DNA of 64,000 bases, taken from a candidate division WWE3 bacterium RAAC2_WWE3_1. Its GTDB lineage: Bacteria; Patescibacteriota; WWE3; UBA101185; UBA10185. The position numbers and the translations under genes are program-made. Of the stretch, positions 1 through 57,600 are shown in pieces (position 1 is the stretch's first letter; every line of letters begins with the position of its first letter). The notes below the pieces were generated by a model. The model ran no database searches and had not been told where the DNA came from. It saw nothing but the letters and a program-made list of their open reading frames with translations. The stretch is from NCBI GenBank assembly GCA_000503835.1, contig CP006914.1, forward strand, positions 721,680 to 785,679. Reading direction: 5' to 3'.

Positions 1-416
1 AATTTTACGTTTTTGATAACTTTTCCTCATTTCAAGTAGAATACGATGGTTATTTATGGGCTACTTCCGAACATGCCTATCAGGCAAAAAAATTCAAAGA
101 TACTTCACCTGAAGTATATGACAAAATTAAACATACTCGCTCTGCACACGATGCCCAAAAGGTTGCAAATGAAAATAAGAGTGTCCAAAATCCTAATTGG
201 AATACTGTAAAAAAAGAAGTTATGAAAGAGATTCTCCGAAATAAGATTAACCAACACCCATATGTCTTAAAAAAACTTCTTCAGACAGGCACAAGAGAAA
301 TAATAGAGGATTCGTGGAGAGATGCTACTTGGGGGTGGGGCCCTAATAAAGAAGGGAAGAATCTTTTAGGAGCACTGTGGATGGAATTGCGTGACGAGTA
401 CAAAGAGAAACCCTAA
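1..416 (+). CDS. NADAR (YbiA-like, DUF1768) domain protein, 5' partial at window edge
   Basis: Frame continues from position 3 without a start. The translation ...YLWATSEHAYQAKKF...WRDATWGWGPN matches the NADAR/YbiA hallmark motifs. Confidence 0.6.
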   Translation, partial: FYVFDNFSSFQVEYDGYLWATSEHAYQAKKFKDTSPEVYDKIKHTRSAHDAQKVANENKSVQNPNWNTVKKEVMKEILRNKINQHPYVLKKLLQTGTREIIEDSWRDATWGWGPNKEGKNLLGALWMELRDEYKEKP

Positions 417-478
417 CTTACCAAAAATAAGGGGTCATCATGTTTAAATTTCCTTCATGATCTTTGAAAGACTCGTAT

Positions 479-1216
479 TTAATATATATTACCAACCAGA
501 ACATCACCTTTTACAGGAATACAAGTGTACACGTCTGCGTTTGGAGCAACAAAACAATATTTTTCCGGCTCTCGTTTAAGTAGCCGGACTTGAATGACCG
601 TGTTTTTTACTGTGTCCTTAACCCTTGTAACTATTGTATCGAAGGTATTGTCATCCAGTTCGAACGTTGTTTTAAAGTGGTTACCTCTATTTATTGGATT
701 AAATTCCATCAACGTCCAATAATCTATTTTTTTACTTTCCAAAAAATTGCCGATATTTACTATGTCATCAGAATTTATCTTAGTTATAAGCGTCTTAACA
801 TTCACAGGAATACCGATTTCGATAATCTGGTCTAGCAACCGGATAACACTCGTGTATGCTTTGGGGTCCTTTCTCATGCTCACACATATATTTTCAGTTG
901 ATCCATCCAAAGATAGACTAATTCTGGTTACTAATGGTCGGATTAAATTTAATAGAGAGGCATCAAACTTTACTGCGTTTGTATGTACAGTTGTGGCAAT
1001 CCCGTTTTCTTTAAATCGCTTCAAAACATTTACAAAATCTTTATTTATAGATGGTTCCCCGCCGCTTATCGTCACTTGTTTAAACCCGGCTCTTATTATA
1101 TTGTCAATAATATTTTCCTTAATTTCCCACGAAACATCTTGAACGCGCATATCCCAGAAACAAAAATCGCAGCTGAGATTACAACTATTTCCCAGCAAAT
1201 AATGAATCCCTTTCAT
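479..1216 (-). CDS. radical SAM protein
   Basis: N-terminal CNLSCDFC (CxxxCxxC) radical SAM cluster motif plus GGEPS glycine-rich motif. 245 aa. Confidence 0.6.
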   Translation of the reverse strand: MKGIHYLLGNSCNLSCDFCFWDMRVQDVSWEIKENIIDNIIRAGFKQVTISGGEPSINKDFVNVLKRFKENGIATTVHTNAVKFDASLLNLIRPLVTRISLSLDGSTENICVSMRKDPKAYTSVIRLLDQIIEIGIPVNVKTLITKINSDDIVNIGNFLESKKIDYWTLMEFNPINRGNHFKTTFELDDNTFDTIVTRVKDTVKNTVIQVRLLKREPEKYCFVAPNADVYTCIPVKGDVLVGNIY

Positions 1217-1311
1217 ACATTGAGTATATTACTTTTGATTGTACCTCGGTTACAGCCTTTTATGACAACATGACATTTGGGTAGTTACTAAAGAGTTCCA
1301 AAGTTAGCATG

Positions 1312-1833
1312 CTACAGCTCAGAAAGTAAGTGTTCTACGATCTTTGTAGTTGATTTGGACTTTTCATAGTTTATATCAAGTAAATTGATGCCGAGTTTAT
1401 TAGCCCTTTTTTCTTTGCTCTTCCAGTATTTATCCATCTTTTTGGTGGTTATAAGATAGTGCGGTGTCACCGTTTTAAGTATATTGCTGTGTATTCTTGT
1501 TGCTTCTTTGTCATTACTGTAATCAAAGGTATCAATAATTGGAAATACATAATCTATATATTGCACAGCCTCTAAAAACCTCGTCCTAGAGTTTTGATTA
1601 TTTATTGGTCTATTAACTCCTTTTGATTTTCTGATTGTTTCATCATTTTCTACACCTACTATCAAAATATCTACCTGATTTTTTGCAGATTGGAATAATG
1701 CAATATGACCAATATGTAAAATATCAAAACATCCTGTAATTAAACCAATAGTTTTACCCTTCTTCTTATATTTACTAACGATTACCGGAAGCTCTGAAAT
1801 TAGCCTTATTTTACCTTTGCTCATTAAAACCAT
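1312..1833 (-). CDS. cytidylyl/adenylyltransferase family protein (RfaE domain II-like, heptose-1-phosphate adenylyltransferase-like)
   Basis: GCFDILHIGH (HxGH nucleotidyltransferase motif). The region RPINNQNSRTRFLEAVQYIDYVFPI resembles the HldE C-terminal domain. Confidence 0.55.
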   Translation of the reverse strand: MVLMSKGKIRLISELPVIVSKYKKKGKTIGLITGCFDILHIGHIALFQSAKNQVDILIVGVENDETIRKSKGVNRPINNQNSRTRFLEAVQYIDYVFPIIDTFDYSNDKEATRIHSNILKTVTPHYLITTKKMDKYWKSKEKRANKLGINLLDINYEKSKSTTKIVEHLLSEL

Positions 1834-1948
1834 TATACTATCTGCATGTTGGAGAAGAGTGTGGGTGTTTTATTAAAGAAAGTTCCAAGTATGCCCCATG
1901 CCTCCCCCGGGAATTTACGACAGGCTCTAGCCCCGTGAAATCGCTTTA

Positions 1949-3514
1949 GTGAAGTATCTTGATATACTTCATACAGTGTCTCTTTCAAAACCCATTTTAG
2001 CTAAAATTGTACTCTCCCTATTACTAATTCTTGTATTTGCCTCCTTTTTTCCCAAGAAAATAAATTTGGTAATAGCGGACCTGGGGCAGCATTTGAAAAC
2101 AGGAGAGATTTTTTTTAACACGGGCCGGATTATTAAATCAAATTACTATTCCTACACCGAACCTGACCGCCCTGCAGTAAATCACCGTTGGTTGTCAGGG
2201 GTGATTTTTTATGTCGTTTACAAGTATTTTGATTTCGTAGGGTTGAGTATTTTCTTCGCCCTGCTGTCCGGCGTAACTTTATTCATATTTTTTCGGTTGA
2301 TACACAAGAAGGTAGGATTTGTCTGCGCCATCGCATTAATATTTTTGGCATCCCCATTCATACTTTCACGCGTGGAAATCAGACCCGAAGTGTTTAGCCA
2401 TCTTTTTACCGGCCTTTACCTTTACTTGTTTGCGCAATATCGGGAGGGGCGTCTTAAATTCAATAAACTCTTGATTATTGTTTTTCTGATACAGGTGTTG
2501 TGGGTCAACGCGCACCTATTTTTTGTAATCGGGCTATTTTTGTCTTTAGTATTTGCATTTAATTTTTACCTGGAAAATAGATACGATTCTATGCGAAATT
2601 TCCTATCACTTTTTGTGTTGCTTGTTGTCGCAAGCTTAATCAACCCGTCCGGTATTTACGGTGTCTTTGAGCCCTTTGCAATTTTTAGAGAGTATGGCGT
2701 CGATGTTAGTGAAAATGTCGGATTGATAAATTTCTTTTCTTTGGCCTCAGAAATTCCGAATAGTAAAGGATTTTTGTTTATGTTTTTTACCGTATTTATT
2801 TTAGGAATTTTCTCCGGTGTATTTGTCCTCCGTAGGTTTAAAAACAGGAAGGATTGGGTGTGGCTAATCTTATTTATTATCTTTGGGTCCGCTCCTTTAA
2901 TGATGGTAAGACTAGTTGCTGTGTTCGGGTACTACTCAATATTATATTTTGGGACATTGCTCGCAAACTTTCCCGTACTCATTCAGCGCGCCTCGAAAGT
3001 TTTTAGATATTTCATTCCTTTTTTCATAATTAACGGGCCTTTTCTTTTCCCTAACTATGGTGTTGGATTAAGGCCGGCCGTTCAGGATTCGGCTAATTTT
3101 TTCAAGTATAACAACTTACACGGGCCGATTTTTAATAATTACGATATAGGAGGTTACCTTATATATAATCTCTTTCCGGAAGAACGCGTATTTGTAGATA
3201 ATCGTCCGGAGGCTTATTCTGTTTCTTTTGCCGGGAAAGCGACCGGGCGGTTGGGTAGCGATGAAGCAGCATGGGAAAAACTGGACATGGAGTACCGGTT
3301 TAATACAATCTATCTTTCTCTCTGGGGCAAAAAAGATAGTACAAAAGAATTTCTATTTAAGCGTTTCGGGGATGCACGGTGGAGTACGGTGTTTATGGAT
3401 GGTTACGCAATAATTTTAGTTAGGGATATTCCGGAATTTGATAACGTGGTACATGACTATCGTATATCAAATCCAGGCGAGAGATATTTGTCGGAACCCC
3501 AGCCGCCTTACTAA
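1949..3514 (+). CDS. polytopic membrane protein, possible GT-C-type glycosyltransferase
   Basis: 521 aa with more than 10 predicted TM helices and no recognizable catalytic motif. Fold-family assignment is inference. Confidence 0.35.
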   Translation: MKYLDILHTVSLSKPILAKIVLSLLLILVFASFFPKKINLVIADLGQHLKTGEIFFNTGRIIKSNYYSYTEPDRPAVNHRWLSGVIFYVVYKYFDFVGLSIFFALLSGVTLFIFFRLIHKKVGFVCAIALIFLASPFILSRVEIRPEVFSHLFTGLYLYLFAQYREGRLKFNKLLIIVFLIQVLWVNAHLFFVIGLFLSLVFAFNFYLENRYDSMRNFLSLFVLLVVASLINPSGIYGVFEPFAIFREYGVDVSENVGLINFFSLASEIPNSKGFLFMFFTVFILGIFSGVFVLRRFKNRKDWVWLILFIIFGSAPLMMVRLVAVFGYYSILYFGTLLANFPVLIQRASKVFRYFIPFFIINGPFLFPNYGVGLRPAVQDSANFFKYNNLHGPIFNNYDIGGYLIYNLFPEERVFVDNRPEAYSVSFAGKATGRLGSDEAAWEKLDMEYRFNTIYLSLWGKKDSTKEFLFKRFGDARWSTVFMDGYAIILVRDIPEFDNVVHDYRISNPGERYLSEPQPPY

Positions 3515-4387: not shown

Positions 4388-5467
4388 ATGAAGTTTATCG
4401 TCAGCGCCGGAGGCCAGGGCACGAAACTATGGCCATACAGCAGAGAAAATAACCCCAAGCAATTTCAGAAAATCTTAAACGGAGAATCGCTTTTTTCATA
4501 CAACGTAAAAACTTTACTTAGAAAATACCCCGCAAACGATATTCTTATTTCGACCAAAGACCGGTACGTAAAAATCGCGCGTGAGCAGGTTCCGCAGATA
4601 CCTTTGGAAAATTATATTCTAGAGCCGGACACACCTAAGAACAGAGGTCCCGCCGACGGACTAGCAATTGTTTACCTCGACGTTAAATTTCCGGGCGAAC
4701 CCTTTATGATCGTTCAGTCGGATTGCGTCAGAATTCCCGAAAACAATTATCTATTATTAATAGAAACTGCCGAAAAGCTAGTGAAAGAATATAAAAAGTT
4801 TATTTCGGGCGGAATTGCTGTCACATACCCCGACCTTGGGGTTGACTACCTAAAGCTCGGCAGAAAAATCCATTCTTATGGGAACGTCGATGTTTATGAA
4901 GCAAAAGAATTCGTTGACCGCCGTTCAAATTATGTTGAAACGAAAGAACTCATCGAAAATTTTAACGTTGTAAAGCACAGCAACCACAACTGCTGGTACC
5001 CACAACTGCTGTTAGAAGCGTATGAAAGATACAAACCGGATTGGTATACGGCGCTAATGCAGATTAGAAAAATTATTAGTGAAACGAACAGTCTCGAGGG
5101 CGTTTCAGCTATTTATCAGGGAATGGAAGCCGGTGCAACCGAAATCGTCACCCGCCATTTATTTAAAGACGCGCTGATTTTGCAGCTCAATTATAATTGG
5201 GTCGACATCGGTACGTGGAATTCGCTTTACGAGTATGTCGCGCGTAAAGATCAGGTGTACAAAGAGGGAAACGTGATTGCCCTGGACTCAAAAAGCTCTT
5301 TGATTAAAAGTGACAATCCCGACAAACTGATAGCGGTGTTCGGACTAAAGGATATGGTGGTTGTAGATACTGCGGACACGCTGTTGATTGTGCCTAAAGA
5401 TAAAACCGACAAAATCAAAGACATTCAGGACGAGCTGCGCAGTAAAAAGCTGGACAAGTATTTGTAG
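4388..5467 (+). CDS. mannose-1-phosphate guanylyltransferase-like nucleotidyltransferase
   Basis: N-terminal SAGGQGTKLWPYSR (GGxGTRLWPLSR sugar-nucleotidyltransferase motif). 359 aa. Confidence 0.6.
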   Translation: MKFIVSAGGQGTKLWPYSRENNPKQFQKILNGESLFSYNVKTLLRKYPANDILISTKDRYVKIAREQVPQIPLENYILEPDTPKNRGPADGLAIVYLDVKFPGEPFMIVQSDCVRIPENNYLLLIETAEKLVKEYKKFISGGIAVTYPDLGVDYLKLGRKIHSYGNVDVYEAKEFVDRRSNYVETKELIENFNVVKHSNHNCWYPQLLLEAYERYKPDWYTALMQIRKIISETNSLEGVSAIYQGMEAGATEIVTRHLFKDALILQLNYNWVDIGTWNSLYEYVARKDQVYKEGNVIALDSKSSLIKSDNPDKLIAVFGLKDMVVVDTADTLLIVPKDKTDKIKDIQDELRSKKLDKYL

Positions 5468-5535
5468 GATTTATAGGGTAGGACGGTTCAAGTTTGTGTT
5501 AAAATCAAGGCTGTTCCGGTGCTAAATGCGGCTTT

Positions 5536-5625
5536 GGAGGGATGCGAGAGCGGTCTAATCGGCTCGCTTGGAAAGCGACGCGTCGCGAAAGCGGCACGAG
5601 GGTTCGAACCCCTCTCCCTCCGCCA
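5536..5625 (+). tRNA. tRNA-Ser(GGA), type II with long variable arm, CCA encoded
   Basis: Acceptor GGAGGGA/TCCCTCC; D-loop GAGCGGTCTAA; anticodon loop TTGGAAA (U33, GGA, A37); long variable arm; T-arm GAGGG-TTCGAAC-CCCTC; discriminator G plus CCA. Architecture parallels E. coli tRNA-Ser(GGA). Confidence 0.85.
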
Positions 5626-5826
5626 TGCCTTCGGCAGACTTGCCGACAGGTAAGGCTGACGAAGCATTGCTGAAGTGAATTGGTTCGAAAGGCGCAGGCA
5701 CGACGGTACCGAGCCGGGGTCGACGGAATTCTCAGCAGAGAATTACCGGTGACCGAACCCCATAATTTGAGCTACGCGAGAATTATACAAGGAAGCGCAG
5801 CGAGTACTTGAGCGAGCAAGCTTTTA

Positions 5827-5838
5827 CTCCCTCCGCCA
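5827..5838 (+). repeat. 12-nt exact direct repeat of the tRNA-Ser 3' end (CTCCCTCCGCCA), 213 bp downstream of the tRNA
   Basis: Identical to 5614..5625. The intervening 200 bp is GC-richer and structured and contains a GGTTCGAAAGG T-loop-like motif. Confidence 0.5.
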
Positions 5839-5848
5839 AAAAATTCTT

Positions 5849-5905
5849 TTCAAAAATAAGCATAAAAAACGCCCCGGCAATATCTAATTGATATGCAAGG
5901 GCGTG
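5849..5905 (-). terminator. Rho-independent terminator of the 5884..6741 gene
   Basis: On the minus strand, hairpin ACGCCC..GGGCGT (overlapping the stop codon) followed by TTTTTTATGCTTATTTTT. Confidence 0.4.
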
Positions 5906-6741
5906 TAAGACGCTTCTAGTACATTTAACAAAATCACGTAACGATAGTAGGTAGGTTCCAGATTGGGACCCCATCCGCAGAAGTTAATCATTATTTCGTG
6001 GCCGTTATTTTTTACGGTTTCGAAAGCTTCTGCATTTCCTATCGATTCGTATCTGCCGTCAGTGACTATGTCTAGTACTTGCTCCGGATTTAGTCGTATT
6101 TCTTCGGCAGCGTTGTGATCCATTCTAATTGCTGCCACAACTTCTACTTCAACCTTAGTTCCGCTTGAGTAGAGTTTTCCTCTGCTTCCCACGGCTTGCT
6201 GAAGTTTCTTGAGGACGGATTCTTCGGAAGTTTTTCCCCGACGTTCAAAGTAAAATCGAAAGGGTTCTGCTTCCAACGGTTCGTCTTTATGGTACCCGGA
6301 GTGGATTCCAATCAAAATATTTCCATAATTTTCTGCTCTGGAAACACCGATCCCGTTTCCTACTTCCAAACCTTCGGAGGTACTTGCGTAACCCCCAAGA
6401 TTTACGGGACTAATCAATTCCGCCGAGATCTCGATTCCCTCAAATCCGCCACCATCAAATTGCATGACGACAGGACCGATAGAGAGGTCTATATTGCCGT
6501 CTGCCGCCCGGAAGATATAAGGATTTACCTCTTCTTTCGGGAGTGGGGTTGGCGTGGCGGTTGTCAAAGGCTGCTTGGTGGCAATAATTTCCTGGAGTAC
6601 GGGAGTATTCCCGAGTACTTCAAGATCTTTTGTTGCCGCAAATTCGGATTTTGCGATACGCGGTGCGCTTGTTTTGTATGTCGCAAAATCAAACGACAGT
6701 ATCGCAAGTATCAAAAATACCATCAGGCCCAATTTTTTCAT
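5884..6741 (-). CDS. secreted hypothetical protein (signal peptide)
   Basis: N-terminal MKKLGLMVFLILAILSF hydrophobic signal. 285 aa with no confident family assignment. Confidence 0.4.
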   Translation of the reverse strand: MKKLGLMVFLILAILSFDFATYKTSAPRIAKSEFAATKDLEVLGNTPVLQEIIATKQPLTTATPTPLPKEEVNPYIFRAADGNIDLSIGPVVMQFDGGGFEGIEISAELISPVNLGGYASTSEGLEVGNGIGVSRAENYGNILIGIHSGYHKDEPLEAEPFRFYFERRGKTSEESVLKKLQQAVGSRGKLYSSGTKVEVEVVAAIRMDHNAAEEIRLNPEQVLDIVTDGRYESIGNAEAFETVKNNGHEIMINFCGWGPNLEPTYYRYVILLNVLEASYTPLHIN

Positions 6742-34725: not shown

Positions 34726-35148
34726 ATAAAGCTCGATGGAAAAATAACCGAGGATTTTTATCAAGAAAAGTACCAAGAGTTTACAGCTGAAAGAAATGAA
34801 CTCATTGTCCAAAGAAAGAAGCTAAACACAAAGGATAATAGTTTCTATGAGAAAACTACCGCTCTTTATGATGTAGCTCAAAAAGGTATTGAGATTTACG
34901 AGGAATCTAAAGAGTTAAGGAAACGCAGATTAATACGGCTTATATTTACAGACATGACCCTTAATAGTGGAATATTATATTTTGCCTACATAAAGCCATA
35001 TATGATATTAAGAAAAGCGGTTGAAGAAACTAATGGTTCGAAAGTAGCTGAAGACGAGACTTTTATGGAAAATATTTTCGAACTTAAGGATTTTAGCGGT
35101 GTTAAAGCAGAAATGGAGCCTTTGGGCATTGATTGTTCTTTATGGCTC
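34726..35148 (+). pseudogene. gene fragment, copy 2 of the duplicated unknown gene, truncated at both ends and abutting the tRNA-Asn 3' end
   Basis: No start codon. About 75% identical to 24793..25150. Identity to copy 1 ends at TGGCTCC, exactly where the minus-strand tRNA 3' terminus (TGGCTCCCCCGGG) begins. Confidence 0.5.
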
Positions 35149-35183
35149 CCCCGGGTGGATTCGAACCACCAACCTGCCGATTA

Positions 35184-35752
35184 CATGTGATCCGTTTGTT
35201 TCCAAACAGCATGGACTATCTCATCATCTTTTGTGTCACCACATTAAGATGTCGGGCGCTCTAGGGTGTAATCACCTAGTCTCTGCACCTTTTCATGTGT
35301 ACCCGGCAAGGCGTACAAATGAACTTGGCTCAGGATTACCATGTCCGTCGATTAATCGACAGAGTTAGGTTTCCCTGAGTTCACCCAATTTTTCAACCGT
35401 CGTTTCCGGCGGAAGCTGCACTACTCCGTTATGAATTTCCTTGTGACAGTTCGAACAGACTAAAACACATTTTTCAAGCTCTCTTTTAATTGTTTCCCAA
35501 CTTCTCGTTAGTCCGCGACTGGCGAGCCCGAAGTCTTTTTTCTGCCCATCTTTATGGTGAAACTCTAATGCCGCAAAGCATTTGTTATAACCACAAAGGT
35601 TGCATTTATTTCCAAGGTACTCGACTGCCAGCATTTTCAGTTTTCGTCTTCTCTTAGAGACAGCGAGACTGAGATAGCGGGGTCTGTCTGAGTACCTTCG
35701 GGTTTCCTTCGTCACAAGATATTTATATAACTTTCATAACGGTTGTCAACGT
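35184..35752 (-). other. tRNA intron (group I-like, inferred) carrying an HNH endonuclease ORF
   Basis: Lies between the two tRNA-Asn exons. Contains CDS 35365..35715 on the same strand. The secondary structure was not verified. Confidence 0.45.
35365..35715 (-). CDS. HNH homing endonuclease
   Basis: CNLCGYNKC...EFHHKDGQKKD...CSNCHKEIHNG. Canonical HNH motif with zinc-binding Cys pairs. 116 aa. Confidence 0.7.
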   Translation of the reverse strand: MTKETRRYSDRPRYLSLAVSKRRRKLKMLAVEYLGNKCNLCGYNKCFAALEFHHKDGQKKDFGLASRGLTRSWETIKRELEKCVLVCSNCHKEIHNGVVQLPPETTVEKLGELRET

Positions 35753-35857
35753 ACAGTCGGACGCTCTACCATTGAGCTACAGGGGAACGAAGCACAGAAA
35801 TACTAACATAACCGCTTCGGGGCTTCAATAATCGATTACTTTTCTATTTAGTGGATT

Positions 35858-42337: not shown

Positions 42338-42372
42338 GGGTGATTAGCTCAATTGGCAGAGCTCTCGTCTTA
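42338..42372 (+). pseudogene. partial tRNA: 35-nt duplicate of the 5' part (acceptor, D-arm, start of anticodon stem) of the downstream tRNA-Ile
   Basis: GGGTGATTAGCTCAATTGGCAGAGCTCTCGTCTTA is identical to 42461..42495, then diverges. No T-arm follows. Confidence 0.5.
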
Positions 42373-42460
42373 CGTTTGACGCTATAGTGAGCATCGCGAG
42401 CTATGGCTCAAAGGAAAGTCCTCGTGAACTTTGGTAATTTTGAAAAACCTGGTCTTGTGG

Positions 42461-42536
42461 GGGTGATTAGCTCAATTGGCAGAGCTCTCGTCTTATACAC
42501 GAGCGGTTCCTGGTTCGATCCCAGGATCACCCACCA
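42461..42536 (+). tRNA. tRNA-Ile(UAU)
   Basis: Acceptor GGGTGAT/ATCACCC, D-arm GCTC-AATTGGCA-GAGC, anticodon stem CTCGT/ACGAG with loop CTTATAC (TAT), T-arm CCTGG-TTCGATC-CCAGG, A plus CCA. Confidence 0.7.
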
Positions 42537-42590: not shown

Positions 42591-43466
42591 TTAAAGAGTA
42601 TCCAGTTCGGTCTTTTCCTGTTCACCGGTTCTGTCTATGTACTGAAGATACCTTTCGGTTGTGGAAATTCTTTTGTGTCCTGCAATTTTAGACAAGTAGA
42701 TTATGCTAACTCCGCTTGCTAAATGATGGGCTACAAAAGTGTGTCTTAGATCGTTGACCTTGGCTTTTTCCACACCGGCAAGTTTAAAGAATCTATCTAT
42801 GGTAGACCTTATATTTCTTATCAATAGGGGGTTGCCGGTTTTTGTGATGAACAGATAGCCGGAGCTTTTAACGATAGATCTTTCTTCACTCATGTATTTA
42901 TTTACCGCATCTATAACAGCCTTGTTCAAAGGAATGGTTCTCGCTTCTTTATTATTTTTCTTGGCAACAAAAAGATTTCCGTTAGATCCGGAAATAGTTA
43001 AATTCTCTGTTTTTATTTCTGCAAGTTCGGAAATGGTCACACCTGTCTGTAAAAGCATTTCGATCATTGCGTAAGTTCTAAGGTCATTTCTCGTCGCGTC
43101 TCTTAAAGCCCTGTACTCCATTTTGGTTAGGATTCTCGGAGCCTTGGTTTCGAGTTTAGGGTGTTTTAATCCAAGGGAAACATTTTCCGCAATTTCTCCC
43201 TCAGCGTGGAGGTATTTAATAAATGTTCTGGTGGCGTTGGTCTTTCTGGAGACAGATTTTAAAGTGTAGTCAGCATTAGCCAGTTTCTTCATAAAATCCT
43301 CTAAATGACCGAGCTTTATCTCGCTAACCAGGTTTACGCCCATACCGGATAGATGGGACAATAGTTGCTCAACGTCCTTGCTATAAGCTACAACGGTAGC
43401 TCCGGACTTGCCTTCGCTCTTAAGTTTTTCTACAAAGTTTTTATGCGCAGCTTCAAGATTCAGCAT
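42591..43466 (-). CDS. tyrosine site-specific recombinase (XerC/XerD-like)
   Basis: C-terminal catalytic region LRHTFVAHHLASGVSIIYLSKIAGHKRISTTERYLQ (R..H..R..Y). N-terminal SAM-like core-binding domain. 291 aa. Confidence 0.8.
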   Translation of the reverse strand: MLNLEAAHKNFVEKLKSEGKSGATVVAYSKDVEQLLSHLSGMGVNLVSEIKLGHLEDFMKKLANADYTLKSVSRKTNATRTFIKYLHAEGEIAENVSLGLKHPKLETKAPRILTKMEYRALRDATRNDLRTYAMIEMLLQTGVTISELAEIKTENLTISGSNGNLFVAKKNNKEARTIPLNKAVIDAVNKYMSEERSIVKSSGYLFITKTGNPLLIRNIRSTIDRFFKLAGVEKAKVNDLRHTFVAHHLASGVSIIYLSKIAGHKRISTTERYLQYIDRTGEQEKTELDTL

Positions 43467-57317: not shown

Positions 57318-57392
57318 GGCCTGGTAGCCAAGCGGCAAGGCAAGGGTCTGCAAAACCCTCATGCGCGGGTTCGATTCCCGCCCAGGCCTCCA
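57318..57392 (+). tRNA. tRNA-Cys(GCA)
   Basis: Acceptor GGCCTGG/CCAGGCC, D-arm GCC-AAGCGGCAA-GGC, anticodon stem AGGGT/ACCCT with loop CTGCAAA, T-arm GCGGG-TTCGATT-CCCGC, T plus CCA. Confidence 0.8.
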
Positions 57393-57495
57393 AAGACTAC
57401 GACGTACATTTTGTACGGCGAAGTTTTTGTGGTTTGGTAGGAAGAAGCGCCACGCGAAGCGGTTCGACTTTTGGTGCTATAGTAATCTATAGCTC

Positions 57496-57600
57496 AAATG
57501 GAACGTTCTCGAGCGGAGCGAGAGGTTGTTACTTTTTGTAAAGTAAATGGAACGTTCTCGAGCGGAGCGAGAGGTTGTTATTCCCGCCCAGGCCTCCAAA
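57496..57600 (+). repeat. tandem duplicated 36-mer (57496..57531 and 57545..57580) ending in a 21-nt exact copy of the tRNA-Cys 3' end (57580..57600)
   Basis: AAATGGAACGTTCTCGAGCGGAGCGAGAGGTTGTTA occurs twice. ATTCCCGCCCAGGCCTCCAAA is identical to 57374..57394. Confidence 0.6.

Follow-up and report, generated by a model that had tools for sequence, protein, structure and literature searches.

The genome of candidate division WWE3 bacterium RAAC2_WWE3_1 carries, in a 64,000-nucleotide stretch of contig CP006914.1 (positions 721,680 to 785,679 of the forward strand; hereafter the window, numbered from its first letter), an intact tRNA-Ser(GGA) gene followed by a segment that ends in a copy of the gene's own 3' end. 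Here we describe this 213-bp segment (5626..5838) and the relatives it has elsewhere. It belongs to a large family of structured elements that are tied to tRNA genes, vary in number between relatives, and can nest in one another.

The segment behind tRNA-Ser(GGA)

The repeat that drew attention to this locus is exact. The 12-mer CTCCCTCCGCCA closes the tRNA gene from 5614 and recurs from 5827, and these are its only two sites in the 64 kb, also when one mismatch is allowed. With 0.13 matches expected and two copies in none of 100 shuffles, the 12-mer is not a sequence that is frequent by chance. Taken alone it is marginal, as a mononucleotide shuffle of the 450 nt downstream gave a repeat of 11 nt, and its reality therefore rests on the family evidence given below.

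The sequence between the repeats is GC-rich (0.53, compared to 0.42 for the window and 0.43–0.44 for the flanks), folds better than its shuffles (z = -3.5), and the 213-bp segment has no open reading frame (ORF) of at least 100 amino acids. The original prediction, made from the letters alone, had described a GC-rich, structured, noncoding segment with a T-loop-like GGTTCGAAAGG and the same geometry at tRNA-Cys. All of this held: GGTTCGAAAGG, at 5682..5692, is a conserved motif of the family, and the tRNA-Cys gene is followed in the same geometry by a 19-nt repeat. Nor is the segment a variant of transfer-messenger RNA (tmRNA) or another known noncoding RNA. ARAGORN, which also reports tag peptides, called no tmRNA in the window, and no Rfam 15 family matched the tRNA-Ser region even at E up to 10, the flanking tRNAs alone matching. 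Simple scans of 5300..6000 found no promoter or terminator, and 5500..5900 holds no pair of inverted repeats, unlike what defines a miniature inverted-repeat transposable element (MITE).

The gene and the segment comprise the following parts, all on the + strand:

5536..5625, +, tRNA-Ser(GGA), intact, CCA encoded (ARAGORN; Rfam tRNA at 44.2 bits with the region scanned alone)
5605..5625, +, last 21 nt of tRNA-Ser, CGAACCCCTCTCCCTCCGCCA, the segment copied by the unit
5626..5761, +, X unit: hairpin, T-arm-like GGTTCGAAAG, two hairpins around GGGGTCGA, and GTGAC
5626..5666, +, 5' hairpin of the unit, beginning directly after CCA (from folding and comparison with relatives)
5667..5680, +, linker TTGCTGAAGTGAAT; a TTGNTGAAG-like linker is also present in the relatives L009 and L018
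5681..5691, +, degenerate T-stem 5' strand and T-loop start, TGGTTCGAAAG
5691..5715, +, hairpin H1 of core X, GGC-GCA-GGCAC..GGTACC-GA-GCC, whose base helix GNC/GN'C covaries
5716..5723, +, junction motif GGGGTCGA, invariant in 8 seed sequences and part of the later search patterns
5724..5748, +, hairpin H2 of core X, CGGAATTCT-CAGCAGA-GAATTACCG, with strong covariation and loop consensus YAGCAGR
5749..5761, +, GTGAC, the 3' end of core X, then CGAACCCC
5762..5826, +, W module, 65 nt: hairpin ATAATT..AATTAT, then ACAAGGAAGCGCAGCGAG..GCAAGCTTTTA (blastn breakpoints 5761 and 5827)
5827..5838, +, tail, the last 12 nt of the tRNA 3'-end copy, CTCCCTCCGCCA

The sequence of the 5' hairpin changes among relatives while the hairpin itself is kept, and in many family members it resembles an intrinsic terminator. 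The T-stem-like strand has the family consensus GGA-TTCGAA-(A/T)G or GGA-TGAGAA-(A/T)G. CGAACCCC opens the copied tRNA segment, giving 8 nt of it from T-loop position C56 onward. A covariance model of the core, described below, finds one X core in the window, at 5673..5774 (90.9 bits).

The same tRNA-Ser locus in relatives shows where the W module begins and ends. The closest genome found, a metagenome-assembled genome (MAG) labelled candidate division WWE3, GW2011_GWC2_41_23 (L023), is syntenic on both sides of tRNA-Ser at 82–85% identity. Its blastn alignment with the window ends at 5761 and restarts at 5827, the W module being absent from L023. The module is homologous to the core of a unit behind tRNA-Ala in another relative, L037. 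By this comparison the spacer is an X unit (5626..5761, continued in 5827..5838) with W (5762..5826) nested inside it, two elements where the original prediction had seen one. The 12-nt repeat is the shortened form of an original 21-nt repeat, CGAACCCCTCTCCCTCCGCCA, split by W: only 12 of the 21 repeated bases now stand at the end because W was inserted into the copied segment.

What follows tRNA-Ser differs from relative to relative:

L001, L005, L006: nothing comparable
L037: terminator hairpin and one unit (B)
L009: a unit (A) between the tRNA and the same terminator and B
L018: a unit and a remnant
L023: A', near-identical to the window unit, 65 nt shorter
Window: A' with W

L009 has exactly one unit and one 21-nt repeat CGAACCCCTCTCCCTCCGCCA more than L037, with identical flanks, and the extra unit adjoins the tRNA. 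The pair fits an excision that restores a single attachment (att) site and also fits a deletion. Five independent Logan contigs of relatives (L002-L004, L008, L010) break off within the unit that follows tRNA-Ser, as repeated or variable sequence would lead one to expect.

Two smaller observations concern this locus. L009 (GCA_046128295.1, JBJSVZ010008421.1) also carries, at 1..3124, an element with a Rep-like protein and a serine recombinase that stands beside another CTCCCTCCGCCA and ends 3 kb upstream of tRNA-Ser(GGA). Larger elements, too, thus appear to use the tRNA-Ser 3' end as an attachment site. Within the window, GGCACGAGGGT at the variable-arm/T-stem junction of tRNA-Ser (5593..5603) and GGCACGACGGT in H1 (5697..5707) agree at 10 of 11 positions, a likeness that may be chance or may hint at an origin of H1 in tRNA sequence.

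A family of tRNA-linked units with a covarying core

Scanning 185,579 species genomes with a pattern of two invariant motifs (GGGGTCGA ... GTGACCGAACCCC) gave real matches in MAGs labelled Saccharibacteria (2), WWE3 (3), Paceibacteria (1) and unclassified ADurb.Bin212 (1); the other matches were chance hits in GC-rich genomes. With a slightly looser pattern, metagenomes of the Joint Genome Institute (JGI) yielded at least 120 loci with an X-type core. As the family was found through the two motifs, these are invariant by construction. All organism-labelled loci are MAGs of the candidate phyla radiation (CPR), and the metagenome contigs carry no taxonomy. Of two scans of viral contigs, one gave no match and the other a single match that looks like chance. 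Rfam contained no family matching eight related loci at E up to 0.1, apart from tRNAs and a group I intron in L082, and no description of the family was found in Rfam or the literature searched, which is the sole basis on which we call it undescribed.

Members share the order of their parts: a T-stem-5'-like strand ending in GGA, then UUCGAA or UGAGAA, H1, GGGGUCGA, H2, GUGAC, and the tail. H1 stands on a three-pair base, GNC/GN'C, with an internal loop G(G/C)A // GA, and H2 carries the YAGCAGR loop and, in some members, a long extension with GAGC-NNN-GCGA at its tip. Built from 8 sequences, a covariance model returned 122 copies in 100 loci. In the alignment of these copies, 93.1% of cells at paired positions are paired compared to 65% after shuffling, a figure somewhat inflated by the fitting of the alignment to the model. 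The covariation score is 0.634, against 0.150 for shuffled alignments and at most 0.09 with the partners slid, and double changes occur at 18 of 22 pairs. The middle pair of the H1 base (column pair 24/169) is found as CG 50, GC 32, AU 24 and UA 9 times. It is hard to account for the slid controls and the four-way pair types except by helices that have been kept, as in a structured RNA; single-stranded DNA would give the same signal. An alternative pairing proposed by RNAalifold, GAUUCG/CGAGUC, was less consistent across sequences than the GNC/GN'C base helix; the latter was confirmed in the alignment of 122 sequences. There are 48 G.U and U.G cells against 22 A.C and C.A cells, and one G.U pair never varies, which implies that it is the tRNA-sense strand that folds, be it as RNA or as single-stranded DNA.

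The sequence after GUGAC is specific to the neighboring tRNA. There, CGAA and about 17 further nt exactly copy the stretch from the T loop (C56) to the 3' end of a same-strand tRNA lying about 50–120 nt upstream, same-strand upstream tRNAs being the only ones sought in this matching. At least thirteen tRNA types are copied (Ser, Ala, Gly, Gln, Trp, Val, Arg, Tyr, Asn, Thr, Lys, Leu and Glu). In most matched loci the copy measures 17–23 nt, with a mode of 21 and a few of up to 28, and where the T loop is other than UUCGAA the start of the copy is unchanged (CAAC.. in L075, CGAG.. in L127). Tails range from perfect to decayed, the latter in a quarter of units.

Genes without CCA mostly have tails without CCA, and trailer bases are sometimes copied too. 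The tail thus follows the CCA state of the gene, so the copy comes from DNA (or a precursor) and not from the mature tRNA. A retro-copy of mature tRNA was accordingly set aside; its two possible exceptions (L039, L077) are about what chance would give. An A-rich tract after the tail, a potential mark of retroposition, is seen in the window and is not general.

The T-stem-like 5' strand and the tail show a weak, significant complementarity beyond the universal GGA/UCC, with pairs 4 and 5 paired in 0.63 and 0.57 of units compared to 0.52 and 0.45 after shuffling. About 10% of units (among them L035, L082, L131 and L126) also have their own acceptor 5' strand and a conserved hairpin, and can close into a mini-tRNA-like fold.

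X is one of several cores with this geometry. We surveyed 196 testable tRNAs, on either strand of 1.06 Mb of related DNA, and at 93 of them at least 12 nt of the 3' end recur in the 450 nt downstream, a share inflated by the choice of most loci for core X. Strict X cores account for 68 of the copies and other cores (W, Y, Z) for 25; among the 128 tRNAs outside strict X, these 25 (about 20%) still have a copy. The cores and their junctions with the tRNA copy are:

Core X: junction at C56 in the T loop
Core W: hairpin, then ..GGAAGCGCAGYGAG..GCAAGCTYTT; junction at A58
Core Y: GGGAAGGGGTCGGGAAACGG...; junction at T60/C61
Core Z: GCCCGATTGAG..GGGGTACTGAA.CTGTAAGT; junction at T54

In about 100 loci the core lies within 55–150 nt of the tRNA with nothing between them except hairpins, many of which resemble intrinsic terminators. 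Across at least 120 loci no protein family recurs near the units and the neighbors are housekeeping genes, and within 3 kb of 120 units there is no enrichment for any recombinase family. Copies within one contig have a median identity of 46%, against 42% between contigs, while units on different tRNA types in different contigs reach 85%. H2 variants are common to units on different tRNA types, and tandem arrays occur. The high identity across tRNA types and the common H2 variants indicate mosaic evolution by recombination.

A few loci depart from the usual layout. In L045 (1..274) the T loop of a full 5' copy of tRNA-Arg (53 nt identical) holds an X core, and the intact tRNA-Arg follows directly; in L092 (730..1247) an X-like core follows the D arm in tandem partial copies before tRNA-Gln; cores in upstream partial copies are the reverse of the downstream arrangement. 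In L100 (28..5230) a 3.6-kb island, which includes an HNH-motif protein, and a 1.3-kb island lie between tRNA-Gln and two X units. These units carry tRNA-Gln tails, and the islands are joined at a 6-7-nt CAGCCA, as though the tRNA end and the tail of a unit had each received an island, which suggests that unit tails can act as secondary attachment sites for islands. In L115 an ORF resembling those of insertion sequences (IS) parts the tRNA from the unit.

Insertion element, host RNA or remnant

Our leading reading, held with moderate confidence, is that 5626..5838 is a resident copy of a kind of small (about 100–200 nt), noncoding and non-autonomous insertion element that is specific for the tRNA T arm and lives in CPR bacteria (Patescibacteria). 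Such an element would consist of a hairpin (often terminator-like), a degenerate T-stem 5' strand with the T-loop start, the core, and an exact tRNA copy from C56 to the 3' end, and would sit in a redundant partial T arm. The tRNA gene stays intact because its 3' segment is present twice. Arrival could be by a Campbell-type single crossover between the tRNA gene and a small donor composed of the tRNA 3' segment, the hairpin and the core; alternatively, a staggered cut could leave a target duplication of roughly 21 bp. An enzyme encoded elsewhere would move the element in trans, a Xer-type tyrosine recombinase being one candidate, and the structure that it recognizes may be the sense-strand fold, as RNA or as single-stranded DNA.

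Several features are as expected of mobile elements: the tandem arrays, the mosaic sharing of H2, the lack of coding capacity, and the lack of a conserved neighbor. The range of tail decay is likewise what birth and death of copies should produce. The original prediction had offered two explanations, a miniature non-autonomous element or an excision/integration scar. The first still leads, since relatives differ in the presence and number of units at tRNA-Ser. A one-off scar of an integrase island fell away, with a covarying two-hairpin core present at 120 or more loci, behind many kinds of tRNA and in several CPR classes.

Other results weigh against an insertion element. Copies within a contig are usually as diverged as those between contigs, which gives no hint of recent bursts. 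A functional RNA would be expected to have just such strong covariation and invariant junction bases, and the modest complementarity between T-stem strand and tail is real and maintained. Neither an excised form nor a transposase, a terminal inverted repeat or a donor copy came to light. Differences in presence and absence can also come from deletion between the 21-nt direct repeats, and the re-matching of both tail and T-stem strand on a move to a new tRNA type has no explanation in this scheme.

The main rival, in our view the less likely of the two, is that the units are functional RNAs of the host. Made by read-through or as a transcript of its own, such an RNA would mimic the top half of a tRNA (T stem, T loop, elbow-like junction and acceptor 3' strand) and work on or together with its cognate tRNA. 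It might, for instance, signal processing to RNase P, RNase Z or the CCA-adding enzyme, function as a decoy, or offer the tRNA 5' strand another pairing partner. The covariation of H1 and H2, in which a single position can show all four Watson-Crick types, argues for it, as do the sense-strand fold with its invariant G.U and its 48 to 22 excess and the placement of units downstream of a tRNA on the same strand (the only strand sought in the tail matching). So do the closed mini-tRNA-like folds of about a tenth of the units, the persistence of units at a sizeable fraction of the tRNA genes of streamlined genomes, and the keeping of the fold by diverged copies within a genome. A host RNA is harder to reconcile with the terminator-like hairpin that parts many units from their tRNA with no promoter-like site between, with close relatives such as L001 that have no unit at the same tRNA, and with decayed tails. 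Structurally unrelated cores share the same geometry and elements nest in one another, and most units lack the acceptor 5' strand that a tRNA-like acceptor stem requires.

Remnants of integrase-mediated islands, phages or plasmids, in which the unit is the attR-proximal end and the body has been deleted, are an improbable source. The unit repeats run from the T loop to the tRNA 3' end, and such direct repeats are what Williams in 2002 is said to have described as the classic identity block of T-loop-targeting tyrosine integrases. Further, tRNA 3' ends appear to serve as att sites in these lineages, as the 12-mer beside the Rep and serine recombinase genes of L009 indicates, islands lie between tRNA-Gln and the units of L100 with their CAGCCA junction, and a Xer-like recombinase stands beside tRNA-Ile in the window. 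Against this, the core keeps its short distance from the tRNA with nothing between in about 100 loci, there is no integrase enrichment nearby, and a covarying fold common to several CPR classes is not what random deletions would leave behind. The islands of L100 and the IS-like ORF of L115 are better read as later insertions between a tRNA and an existing unit. An origin in phages or plasmids found no convincing support in the two viral-contig scans (no match in one, a single chance-like match in the other). Finally, a chance repeat, a plain local tandem duplication or a known RNA (tmRNA variant, intron or riboswitch) might be suspected from a 12-mer that barely exceeds the best shuffle (12 versus 11) at a tRNA 3' end of low complexity. 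With repeats of 19 nt and 35 nt at two other tRNAs of the window, a family at 120 or more loci, and no tmRNA or Rfam match, we regard chance and known RNAs as excluded.

More tentatively, X, W, Y and Z may together form an unrecognized class of structured RNAs embedded in tRNA T arms of CPR bacteria. They would be either mobile elements at the level of RNA or single-stranded DNA that copy the last ~21 nt of the targeted tRNA gene, or top-half mimics that the host has recruited, one for each tRNA. In the latter form, mimics tailored to each tRNA could possibly act in tRNA maturation or surveillance, in hosts with minimal RNA-processing machinery.

Among described systems, the closest filing is with small non-autonomous elements that exploit tRNA genes. 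Like att-flanked integrative elements and their integrase-less, cis-mobilizable derivatives (CIMEs), the units occupy the 3' side of a tRNA, have a direct repeat from T loop to 3' end (at tRNA-Ser 12 nt now and 21 nt before W was inserted; 19 nt at tRNA-Cys; mode 21 in the family), leave the tRNA intact, and form tandem arrays. Unlike them, the units are 100–200 bp long, contain no integrase or cargo in about 120 loci and no recombinase between the repeats, and have covarying hairpins as their body. The distal T-arm copy is moreover interrupted by the core, and at least four types of core occur, which differ in their junctions. Tycheposons, too, reportedly leave partial tRNA copies. MITEs, repetitive extragenic palindromes and bacterial interspersed mosaic elements (REP/BIME), Correia elements and Rickettsia palindromic elements resemble the units in being short, noncoding, multi-copy, hairpin-bearing and non-autonomous, in nesting, in varying between strains, and in persisting in reduced genomes. 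The units differ in lacking terminal inverted repeats, in being strictly tied to tRNA genes and to one strand, and in having a repeat of roughly 21 nt defined by tRNA structure where those elements have a short fixed target duplication. Palindrome-associated transposable elements (PATEs) of the IS200/IS605 type have subterminal hairpins and insert 3' of a short target with no duplication; the units present hairpins and a strand-specific fold together with a 21-nt duplication (TnpA and TnpB were sought in 13 scanned ORFs of the window).

Some casposons target tRNA 3' ends, and casposon- or CRISPR-type integration offers no more than an analogy in its fixed-length repeat (mode 21 here) and in the tRNA-adjacent position of the extra unit of L009. 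In contrast to those systems, no Cas1 or casposase was seen, and the "spacers" of the units belong to one conserved, structured family, where captured pieces of foreign DNA would be expected. The tRNA-like domains of tmRNA and Y RNA (YrlA) are loosely similar, joining a T-arm-like part and a CCA-ending acceptor 3' end to a non-tRNA body; in the units, the acceptor and T sequences change with the neighboring tRNA. Mobile and group I tRNA introns are also small structured inserts in tRNA loops, including the T loop, that spread between tRNA types, and group I introns occur in tRNA genes of both the window and L082. The units differ by inserting in partial, redundant tRNA copies rather than in the functional gene. 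Archaeal Thermoproteales are reported to have mobile tRNA introns at non-canonical positions (Fujishima 2010, as cited in PMC10714607).

Several specific identities were tried and rejected. A tmRNA or two-piece tmRNA had been considered for the likeness of UUCGACGGG to a tmRNA 5' region; neither ARAGORN nor Rfam gave a match for it, the unit has the acceptor strand of tRNA-Ser, and a standard tmRNA is present in the related L037. An intron-containing or giant tRNA-Ser or tRNA-Sec does not fit, with no anticodon arm and the acceptor 5' strand missing in most units. Inspection of the unit revealed no bulge-helix-bulge, Rfam no group I signature, and no splicing motif was present. A hammerhead-like three-way junction, HDV-like and hairpin ribozymes, a bulge-helix-bulge intron and a canonical kink-turn gave no fit by eye and none in Rfam.

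The units are a major unannotated genome feature across a large part of the bacterial tree, and their strongly covarying core is ready for a covariance model and systematic annotation. They fragment short-read assemblies, as the five contigs of relatives that end inside them illustrate, their partial tRNA copies could mislead the annotation of tRNAs and att sites, and they may supply extra attachment sites for islands, as L100 suggests. If mobile, they represent a new way to live inside an essential gene family without destroying it; if functional RNAs, they would be per-tRNA accessory RNAs without a known counterpart.

Other tRNA genes of the window

Units are present at three of the five tRNA genes that ARAGORN calls in the window. 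The other two instances, both on the + strand, comprise the following:

57318..57598, +, tRNA-Cys with W-type unit and tail, second instance in the window
57318..57392, +, tRNA-Cys gene
57393..57579, +, W-type unit behind tRNA-Cys
57459..57467, +, T-arm-like GCGGTTCGA in the tRNA-Cys unit
57476..57493, +, hairpin in the tRNA-Cys unit
57496..57531 and 57545..57580, +, two copies, 13 nt apart, of a 36-nt module, AAATGGAACGTTCTCGAGCGGAGCGAGAGGTTGTTA
57580..57598, +, 19-nt copy of the tRNA-Cys 3' end (original at 57374)
42338..42536, +, mirror-image instance at tRNA-Ile(UAU): 5' copy, insert and intact tRNA
42338..42372, +, copy of the first 35 nt of tRNA-Ile(UAU), stopping within the anticodon, offset 123 nt upstream
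42381..42407, +, W-like hairpin in the 88-nt insert before tRNA-Ile
42408..42434, +, CAAAGGAA module in the same insert
42461..42536, +, tRNA-Ile(UAU), intact, with the unusual anticodon UAU

At tRNA-Cys the longest repeat in shuffled sequence was 10 nt, compared to the 19 nt observed. The pair of 36-nt modules is a local tandem duplication of the W core. Reading it as a CRISPR repeat, and the unit as a mini-CRISPR or a guide RNA (a scaffold with a guide equal to the tRNA end), was tried and dropped: no TnpB, IscB or Cas protein turned up in the 13 window ORFs scanned or in the recurring neighbors of the 120 loci, and the "guide" is simply the copied tRNA segment. The 5' repeat at tRNA-Ile had escaped the original prediction. 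Directly downstream of this tRNA, on the opposite strand, lies a gene for a Xer-family tyrosine recombinase (42591..43466) that scores below the XerC and XerD equivalog cut-offs.

Protein-coding flanks are housekeeping genes. A gene for a ManC-like nucleotidyltransferase, whose nearest named homologs are from Patescibacteria/Saccharibacteria, lies upstream of tRNA-Ser, and the alanyl-tRNA synthetase gene follows tRNA-Cys.

Elsewhere in the window, a tRNA gene on the - strand (35130..35790) is split by a group I intron (RF00028, 90.3 bits, 35192..35472). The intron ORF (35365..35715, 116 amino acids) has an HNH-like Cys/His pattern and no Pfam or NCBIfam match. In L082 (1727..1967) the tRNA upstream of the unit also has a group I intron, so that group I introns and tail units co-occur on one tRNA gene. 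In metagenomic contigs, ARAGORN further reports a "tRNA-Stop" with anticodon UUA in L135 (2552..2627) and several "tRNA-Ser" with anticodon ACU in L054, L055 and L111, which could be suppressors or miscalls.

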